64,000 bases of DNA, taken from Eledone cirrhosa (taxonomy: Eukaryota). Below, in pieces: positions 38,233-38,616 of the stretch; position 1 is the stretch's first letter; each line of letters opens with the position of its first letter. The stretch lies in NCBI GenBank assembly GCA_964016885.1, contig OZ024740.1, forward strand, positions 337,466,001 to 337,530,000, in the 5' to 3' direction. The notes under the pieces are model-generated. The model saw nothing but the letters and a program-made list of their open reading frames with translations. It had not been told where the DNA came from and searched no databases. The position numbers and the translations under genes were made by a program.

Positions 38233-38616
38233 TATAGAAATTACATGAATCAAAGTTCTGTTTAAACTATTTATTCGCTTACAATTGTTTCTTCCAAACC
38301 GAGGTTTGGAGTCTTCGGAGCAATTTTTCAATGATTTTTTACATACATGACCTCCTTTTCAACACAAGAGACATACAGAAATATATGTATATATTGACCC
38401 ACAGTGGGGTGACATCCATTATAATATTATAATGGATGTCAACCCACTGTGCATCAATATATACATGTTTCTGTATGTCTCTTGTGTTGGAAAGGAGGTC
38501 ATGTATGTAAAAAATCATTGACAAATTGCTCCGAAGACTCCAAACCTCGGTTTGGAAGAAACAATTGTAAGCGAATAAATGGTTTAAACAGAACTTTGAT
38601 TCATGTAATTTCTATA
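38233..38616. repeat. 384-bp spacerless palindrome with a hammerhead motif in each arm
   Basis: The axis lies between 38425 and 38426 (ccattataat|attataatgg). The arms match apart from scattered substitutions and a 2-nt indel. Confidence 0.95.
38526..38574 (+). ncRNA. Type I hammerhead motif, U4C core variant (mirror copy 38275-38323 on minus strand)
   Basis: ttgct CCGAAGA ctccaaacc tc ggtttggaa GAAA caattg TA agcga. Stems I, II and palindromic III all form, with a GUA triplet. Confidence 0.7.

Follow-up and report, generated by a model that had tools for sequence, protein, structure and literature searches.

Penelope-like elements (PLEs) are known to leave, at (TA)n targets, an inverted 5'-truncated copy of themselves with a tail of 30-40 bp often on one end only (PMC8557442), and in canonical insertions the two copies stand head-to-head around a palindromic junction (PMC3846280, PMC8557442). 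Pairs of minimal hammerheads lying ~100-700 bp apart on opposite strands have also been reported, and probably come from truncated PLEs (PMC4209133). The Hydra clade of PLEs is described by RWK, DKT, a CxCX5C linker, the lack of CCHH, and CxxC and CxH around E and N, and the Hydra rows of File S2 of the same paper list hammerhead cores that all begin with ctga (PMC8557442). For Poseidon of Anolis (PAc) an in vitro system exists, in which the PLE protein nicks and extends both strands of an AT-rich target, and the tail is delimited by the two internal sites at which RT begins; a hammerhead lies near the 3' end (PMC11167929). Non-LTR retrozymes are short, ORF-less, carry a type I hammerhead, and form head-to-tail tandem repeats that give circular RNAs (PMC7229834; preprint 10.64898/2026.07.22.740005).

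The locus studied here is an inverted repeat without spacer at positions 38233-38616 of the window, by which we mean the whole 64,000-nt stretch of Eledone cirrhosa DNA that was analysed. Its architecture has already been described (PMC4209133, PMC3846280, PMC8557442) and is a known PLE by-product. We read it, with a probability of roughly 0.7, as a truncated insertion of a Hydra-type PLE in which the 3' end of the element was copied twice, head-to-head, likely through independent RT starts on each nicked strand of a (TA)n target. Among PLEs such a palindrome is nothing unusual; the core variant and the tail rule described below could matter to specialists.

Described members of the Hydra clade, such as Hydra-1_Obim and Penelope-13_HM, target (TA)n as the window family does and share with it the RWK-like motif, DKT, CxCX5C, the lack of CCHH, the CxxC and CxH that flank E and N, and a 3' hammerhead in which positions 10.1-11.1 are often mismatched; Penelope-13_HM also has a 5'-truncated inverted copy for which a hammerhead is listed on each strand, like our palindrome (PMC8557442). 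The window family is a variant of these Hydra-type PLEs, differing in its non-canonical hammerhead core (CCGANGA, against ctga in the File S2 rows), its long 3' UTR (~1.5 kb in a unit of ~4.2 kb, where described members are generally <3 kb) and its long tail (162 nt against 30-40 bp). Head-to-head arms, a palindromic junction and a tail on one end are as in canonical PLE insertions, and hammerhead pairs on opposite strands are as in the dual minimal hammerheads; here, however, the tail is long enough to be scored, which brings out a near-strict one-tail rule and arms that are not nested. The two internal start sites, the AT-rich target and the extension of both strands recall PAc, which belongs to another clade and whose sites adjoin each other in an AC-rich stem-loop within its ORF (PMC11167929), whereas the putative sites of the window family are separated by ~162 nt within a non-coding leader and each precedes a predicted GCTC...GAGC hairpin. 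A literature search, with most subscription papers and some supplements outside its scope, returned no fixed position-4 variants in PLEs and no one-tail count or two-primer model.

The palindrome and its parent element

The axis of the palindrome lies at 38425/38426, and in a gapped alignment the arms are identical in 184 of 193 columns (9 differences). An ungapped comparison gives 28 mismatches, and its breakdown near the centre is due solely to a 2-nt indel. The first-pass annotation had described a 384-bp spacerless palindrome near (TA)n, and this description stands; the actual insertion is however asymmetric and ~546 bp long, with the left arm extending from 38232 to ~38071 as the element's tail or leader, 162 nt which that annotation overlooked. 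The untailed right arm is nested within the tailed left arm. The features are given below; both target flanks and the terminal duplication were read from the sequence.

37993..38070, no strand: left target flank, rich in (TA)n/(CA)n
38071..38232, minus strand: left-arm tail of 162 nt, which full-length copies carry as the 5' leader between upstream pLTR and ORF; the putative RT start site 2 is at its outer end
38194..38227, minus strand: predicted GCTC...GAGC hairpin directly downstream of start site 1, folded on the natural copies L068, L141, L155 and L168, with window coordinates read off the sequence; full-length copies have a similar one after site 2
38233..38425, minus strand: left arm, a 5'-truncated pLTR (3' end) of a Hydra-type PLE
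38275..38323, minus strand: type I hammerhead motif with U4C core and C.A mismatch at 10.1-11.1, predicted to cut after 38280
38411..38440, no strand: head-to-head junction in an AT-rich self-complementary motif belonging to the element, seen at 4 further loci
38426..38616, plus strand: right arm, a 5'-truncated pLTR without tail, ending at the putative RT start site 1
38526..38574, plus strand: type I hammerhead motif with U4C core and palindromic stem III, predicted to cut after GUA at 38569
38617..38625, plus strand: 9-nt duplication of the element terminus, possibly an RT re-start, with comparable duplications at L132, L138 and L141
38626..38648, no strand: right target flank, (TA)n

Tandem duplication of the last 7-9 nt of PLE 3' ends was observed at 38617-38625 and also at L132, L135, L138 and L141, as if RT had re-started on a TA primer.

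When the right arm was searched against the 3.0-Gb genome we obtained 2,468 candidates, and full-length matches (40 scored) were 93-98% identical. The CCGAAGA core was present in all 30 fetched loci, which end at either of two points: where the pLTR stops and (TA)n follows, or ~162 nt beyond. Full-length copies are laid out as pLTR, 162-nt leader, ORF, UTR and pLTR with a period of ~4.2 kb, the pLTRs being spaced 4,173-4,234 bp apart. In L031, L033 and L065-L073 the arm sequence is linked to an ORF with a PLE-type RT and GIY-YIG, in which the motifs RWR, DKT, YRDD, CxCX5C, IIY..YIG and CxxC/E/N/CxH are found. Judged by these copies, the palindrome arms are the 3' end (pLTR) of a young, high-copy autonomous PLE with RT and EN, and the link to PLEs and inverted pLTRs drawn in the first-pass annotation was right. 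The window copy itself has no ORF (tblastn was empty) and is most likely a dead end.

The family shows the partial-tandem or inverted pLTRs, the frequent 5' truncation and the optional tail of EN+ PLEs. Of the Hydra traits, RWK in place of GxKF/Y and the change of DKG to DKT are represented by RWR, a conservative change, and ADKT in L041 and L044; the translations further have the CxCX5C linker, no CCHH, CxxC and CxH flanking E and N, and a C-terminal EN, and the untailed ends abut (TA)n or (TC)n. Two traits differ. The pLTR hammerhead is not canonical, the remaining fold being as in File S2, and the pLTR spacing exceeds the 3 kb below which members generally fall, a size that the paper gives as a tendency (PMC8557442). 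The element can be said to have Hydra-clade traits, an assignment made from protein motifs and not from a tree. The protein has 840 homologs, with 30-41% identity among the 120 listed; two of the three that are named come from the molluscs Solemya and Argonauta, and the names are uninformative on clade. Pfam gave no RT or EN match on the two ORF pieces submitted, and the metagenome scans gave no match.

Other Hydra-type PLE ORFs, ~40% identical in the EN region, were seen in L031 (4975-6457), L034 (3599-5433), L066 and L069, and in the downstream DNA examined at these four EN loci the scanner found no hammerhead.

A hammerhead motif with a substituted core

Both arms hold an outward-pointing type I hammerhead motif, at 38526-38574 (+) and 38275-38323 (-), each with a 5-bp stem I, the core CCGAAGA, a 7-bp stem II, GAAA, a palindromic stem III and a GUA site. 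Over 20 shuffles the mean was 0.0 such motifs against the 2 observed. The first-pass annotation was right on their position, orientation, core and stem III. Hammerhead positions are numbered by the usual convention. Three stems around the core, GAAA, an NUH site and an open stem I agree with type I, it being noted that stem II is fixed by the search pattern and covariation is weak. The CUGANGA core and the G10.1-C11.1 pair are not retained: the core carries U4C and, as a second deviation, a C.A mismatch at 10.1-11.1, positions at which A.G, C.C and U-A are also found in relatives. Rfam returned no hammerhead match at the palindrome and none among the 150 of 277 matches listed for the whole window; since the window's canonical-core motifs are likewise absent from the listed matches, we do not count this against the motif. 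Four contig runs across the right core (38531-38570) gave no variant at >=10%.

Folded as a monomer, the hammerhead reaches -9.7 kcal/mol against an MFE of -10.2, that is 0.5 kcal/mol above the MFE. The pairing probability of stem II is ~6e-19 when the full palindrome hairpin is folded. Read-through RNA is thus predicted to bury the ribozyme inside the hairpin, because of the palindrome geometry, which says nothing on expression. The earlier proposal of a long dsRNA hairpin that sequesters the ribozyme holds as such a fold prediction.

A genome-wide pattern search with stem II fixed found 6,548 CCG cores, 189 CTG cores and 127 CCA cores, the last serving as a control for CpG decay, and reversed-pattern controls gave 0. 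From these counts we judge that U4C is the master state in at least three subfamilies; proteins of the other U4C subfamilies are ~84% (L141) and ~60% (decayed L155) identical to that of the window family. Decay peculiar to the window copy was considered as a source of U4C and rejected, as CCGAAGA is found in 30/30 loci and U4C copies outnumber U4 copies by 6,548 to 189. Likewise, the explanation that all 189 U4 copies come from CpG decay is right only in part, their count being above the CCA control (p = 0.0006). Most of the listed U4 copies are in the oldest subfamily, and some U4 master elements may have existed.

A second Hydra-type lineage, whose RT is 45% identical to that of the U4C family, has A at position 4 (U4A) in all of the 100 listed among its 19,207 pattern matches genome-wide. 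Its unit is ~3.26 kb with a tail of ~85 nt, its core is CAGAAGA with a U.U mismatch at 10.1-11.1, and many of its 20 best matches start just 5' of the hammerhead. A lone tail fragment of this lineage, ~95% identical, lies just right of the palindrome at 38658-38772.

The U4C hammerhead is predicted to be inherited from active masters and to be slow, needing a dimer or the element's protein. We consider it possible, if short of probable, that the motif is no longer a ribozyme, its dead fold surviving by drift or as a landmark for structure or protein binding. Such a loss would affect the motif alone and would not conflict with a palindrome made by two RT starts. In vitro, activity falls considerably with U4C (PMC3088659) and PLE insertion was neither affected nor blocked by hammerhead mutations (PMC11167929), and a second lineage carries U4A. 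The weak covariation points the same way: 2 pairs change on both sides, and the covariation score was reached in 7/500 shuffles and the observed paired fraction in 116/500. Against a dead fold, variation among 18 copies of three subfamilies falls on N7, loop II, 10.1/11.1 and the cleavage base (GUA/GUC), the remaining core positions being invariant or nearly so. Further, all 99 stem III variants counted stay self-pairing, 13 of them via a double change, in a count that includes overlapping loci and has the outer pairs fixed by the pattern. Mismatches at 10.1-11.1, C.A included, also occur among published PLE hammerheads. The same U4C substitution supports a viroid in vivo, as a natural variant that stays infectious (cited in PMC3088659); rare there, it is fixed here in at least three subfamilies and 6,548 copies. 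The tested core variants of PAc were engineered, at C3/G8 (PMC11167929), unlike the natural U4C.

We speculate, as a tentative view only, that two very successful Hydra-type lineages have swapped the conserved U4 (for C in ~6,500 copies, for A in ~19,000) with the fold kept, that their hammerheads are slow or protein-gated ribozymes, and that dimer priming, once per hairpin-marked start site, makes the insertions palindromic. If this is true, standard CUGANGA searches would miss such PLE hammerheads in the U4C and U4A lineages; as these lineages have thousands of copies, descriptor searches that require CUGANGA undercount PLE hammerheads. Lineages that reached thousands of copies despite U4C or U4A offer natural experiments on whether PLE hammerheads must cleave.

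Inverted pairs and the origin of the second arm

The genome-wide association of hammerheads with outward inversions expected by the first-pass annotation was recovered. Among the first 100 motif positions listed, 16 outward-facing pairs and 1 inward pair lie within 5 kb (random mean 0.22, maximum 3 in 2,000 trials), with 128 to 3,757 bp between paired motifs. We examined 37 loci for tails and dropped 7 with one or no motif called; in the 30 pairs with both motifs called, exactly one outer end is tailed in 30/30, for which ~1e-9 is expected if tails are independent at 50%. In the U4A lineage 17 pairs were fetched, L175 and L176 were dropped, and 13 of the 15 clear pairs obey the rule, L169 having two tails and L171 none.

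For nesting 43 entries were mapped and read by eye, and 13 near-equal and 7 unscorable ones were dropped. This left 23 pairs with arm 5' ends >100 nt apart, in which the tailed arm is longer in 13 and the untailed arm in 10 (L024, L028, L031, L070, L130, L134, L137, L138, L139, L141). In these 10 pairs each arm holds sequence absent from the other, and therefore neither was copied from the other. This favours two priming events over a simple cDNA fold-back, and together with the nicking and the two start sites seen in vitro (PMC11167929) it makes one priming event per site the best model.

In this model a PLE protein, probably as a dimer, would nick both target strands. One RT would start at site 1, the pLTR end, and the other at site 2, the tail end, each just 5' of a GCTC...GAGC hairpin, and both would copy toward the RNA 5' end; in the window copy both would have stopped ~190 nt upstream of site 1. 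The cDNA ends would then be joined via the short AT-rich self-complementary motif, and the hammerhead would be in both arms solely since it sits ~50 nt upstream of site 1. Predicted hairpins lie a few bases 3' of both start sites in 4/4 natural copies from the two lineages with RTs 45% identical; the site-2 hairpins are weak, at -3.5 to -4.6 kcal/mol with no shuffle control.

Several observations count against two starts. The arms of the window copy are nested, a 70-nt local fold-back is found at the junction of L138, and the U4A pairs L169 and L171 break the one-tail rule. The private variants that L149 and L151 each have in both of their own arms, and the 99.9% identical arms of L141, fit one RNA template or a fold-back equally. 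Junction palindromes have been read as self-priming (PMC3846280). In PAc no difference in start site between the strands was seen in vitro, so that this system does not by itself predict one of each (PMC11167929).

Alternatively, the same PLE by-product may have gained its second arm by self-priming, a single cDNA from site 2 folding back at the AT-rich palindrome and being copied to site 1. This is close to the idea of PMC3846280 and is the mechanism of the first-pass annotation, in which RT folds back on its own cDNA. A spacerless axis at a self-complementary motif, found at 5 loci, the nested arms of the window copy, the variants common to both arms and the local fold-back in L138 all suit it. 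Simple fold-back cannot, however, yield the 10/23 pairs whose short arm has a tail missing from the long arm, and it leaves unexplained why copying should halt precisely at site 1, where many solitary copies normally end as well. The earlier mechanism may have acted in the nested window copy, but we regard this as unlikely.

At the locus L141 (G000:C1:56974300-56984290) a very recent 9-kb palindrome is formed by a head-to-head pair of full-length elements that share 99.9% identity over 4,437 bp.

The first-pass annotation had further taken the palindrome for an ORF-less unit. That it is itself a retrozyme-like, non-autonomous mobile unit, transcribed and re-inserted as a twin-hammerhead fold-back, we find very improbable, since the arm forms the 3' terminus of an autonomous element with RT and EN. 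The 30-bp junction of the window copy does recur identically at 4 other loci, and in another short family L109 and L171 have one axis in common; the 4 loci, however, differ from the window copy and from one another, L149 and L151 have their arm-shared variants, and the right arm of L152 is broken. The axis motif is also present in unbroken element copies, and the shared axis is read as a hot spot for joining and not as descent from one palindrome. Five loci are tiny against 6,548 motifs, spacings of 128 to 3,757 bp do not describe a fixed unit, and the tandem array required of non-LTR retrozymes (PMC7229834; preprint 10.64898/2026.07.22.740005) is absent. Unlike the head-to-tail hammerhead monomers of retrozymes, same-strand neighbours stand ~4.2 kb apart around an ORF, and the palindrome is a head-to-head fragment of an autonomous PLE. 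An assembly artefact (a read fold-back chimera) has a negligible chance, for although none of the listed contigs from runs X1-X4 spans the whole stretch, the arms differ at 9/193 columns, end at distinct family-defined sites and have different flanks, and the same architecture is found at dozens of loci.

PMC8557442 calls the origin of inverted pLTRs in PLEs an open question. With its 162-nt tail and thousands of young copies, this family allows genomic counts to be set against the two-primer and fold-back models, which can also be tested in the in vitro system that already exists.

Other fold-backs and repeats in the window

About a dozen hammerhead motifs from about seven families had been noted in the window at first pass. 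Their multiplicity is real, the exact count is not: we find ~10 from ~8 families, of which 6 are complete and called by the scanner (shuffle mean 0.35) and 4 are degraded and seen by eye, at 31911, about 35630, 37780 and 53080. The stricter scanner needs 4 contiguous stem II pairs and misses motifs that other scans find. Fold-backs at 37581, 53031 and about 100 had been named as relatives of the palindrome; they do exist (at 37581, 53011-53147 and 100-202), as members of three different families and not of one. Features of other families are as follows.

15393 (plus), 22652 (minus), 42042 (minus), 52731 (plus): complete hammerhead motifs
31911 (plus), about 35630 (minus): degraded hammerhead motifs, one of the two related to the U4A lineage
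37581-37936, with a tail to ~37990: fold-back of another PLE family, with one hammerhead only
52994-53245: fold-back of the U4A lineage

The family of the 37581 fold-back has 3,148 candidates and the canonical core CTGAGGA, and in L080 the upstream sequence holds a Neptune-like EN whose linker is of the CxxC type. In the window copy the left arm starts inside stem II, and both stem I and stem II are damaged. The U4A lineage is the source of the fold-back at 53031. Here the canonical-looking CTGAAGA at 53080 is a product of the fold-back junction in a CAGAAGA family, and the junction removes the 5' strand of stem I.

At 100-262 lies the 3' end of a short repeat of PLE type, related to L109, L171, L034 and L016, in which again just one of the arms is tailed. 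No hammerhead was found in the window copy; longer copies of the family have one with a U3-A8 core (TTGAAAA, L109). One axis serves as the fold-back point of L109 and L171 and as the start of L034 and L016, so that the family may represent a genuine non-autonomous unit of small size. An own-genome search with 153-262 gave no match, and the family was read from loci found otherwise.

A further inverted repeat lies at 61404-61533; in its central part it corresponds to the 3' end of a short, common repeat abutting (TA)n, and no hammerhead was called in it. Dispersed inverted repeats of 360-510 nt, 88-96% alike, were seen at 2451-2961, 50100-50677, 56211-57352, 16997-17360 and 36031-36394. The window also contains a full-length 5S rRNA match at 46960-47078 (111.5 bits).
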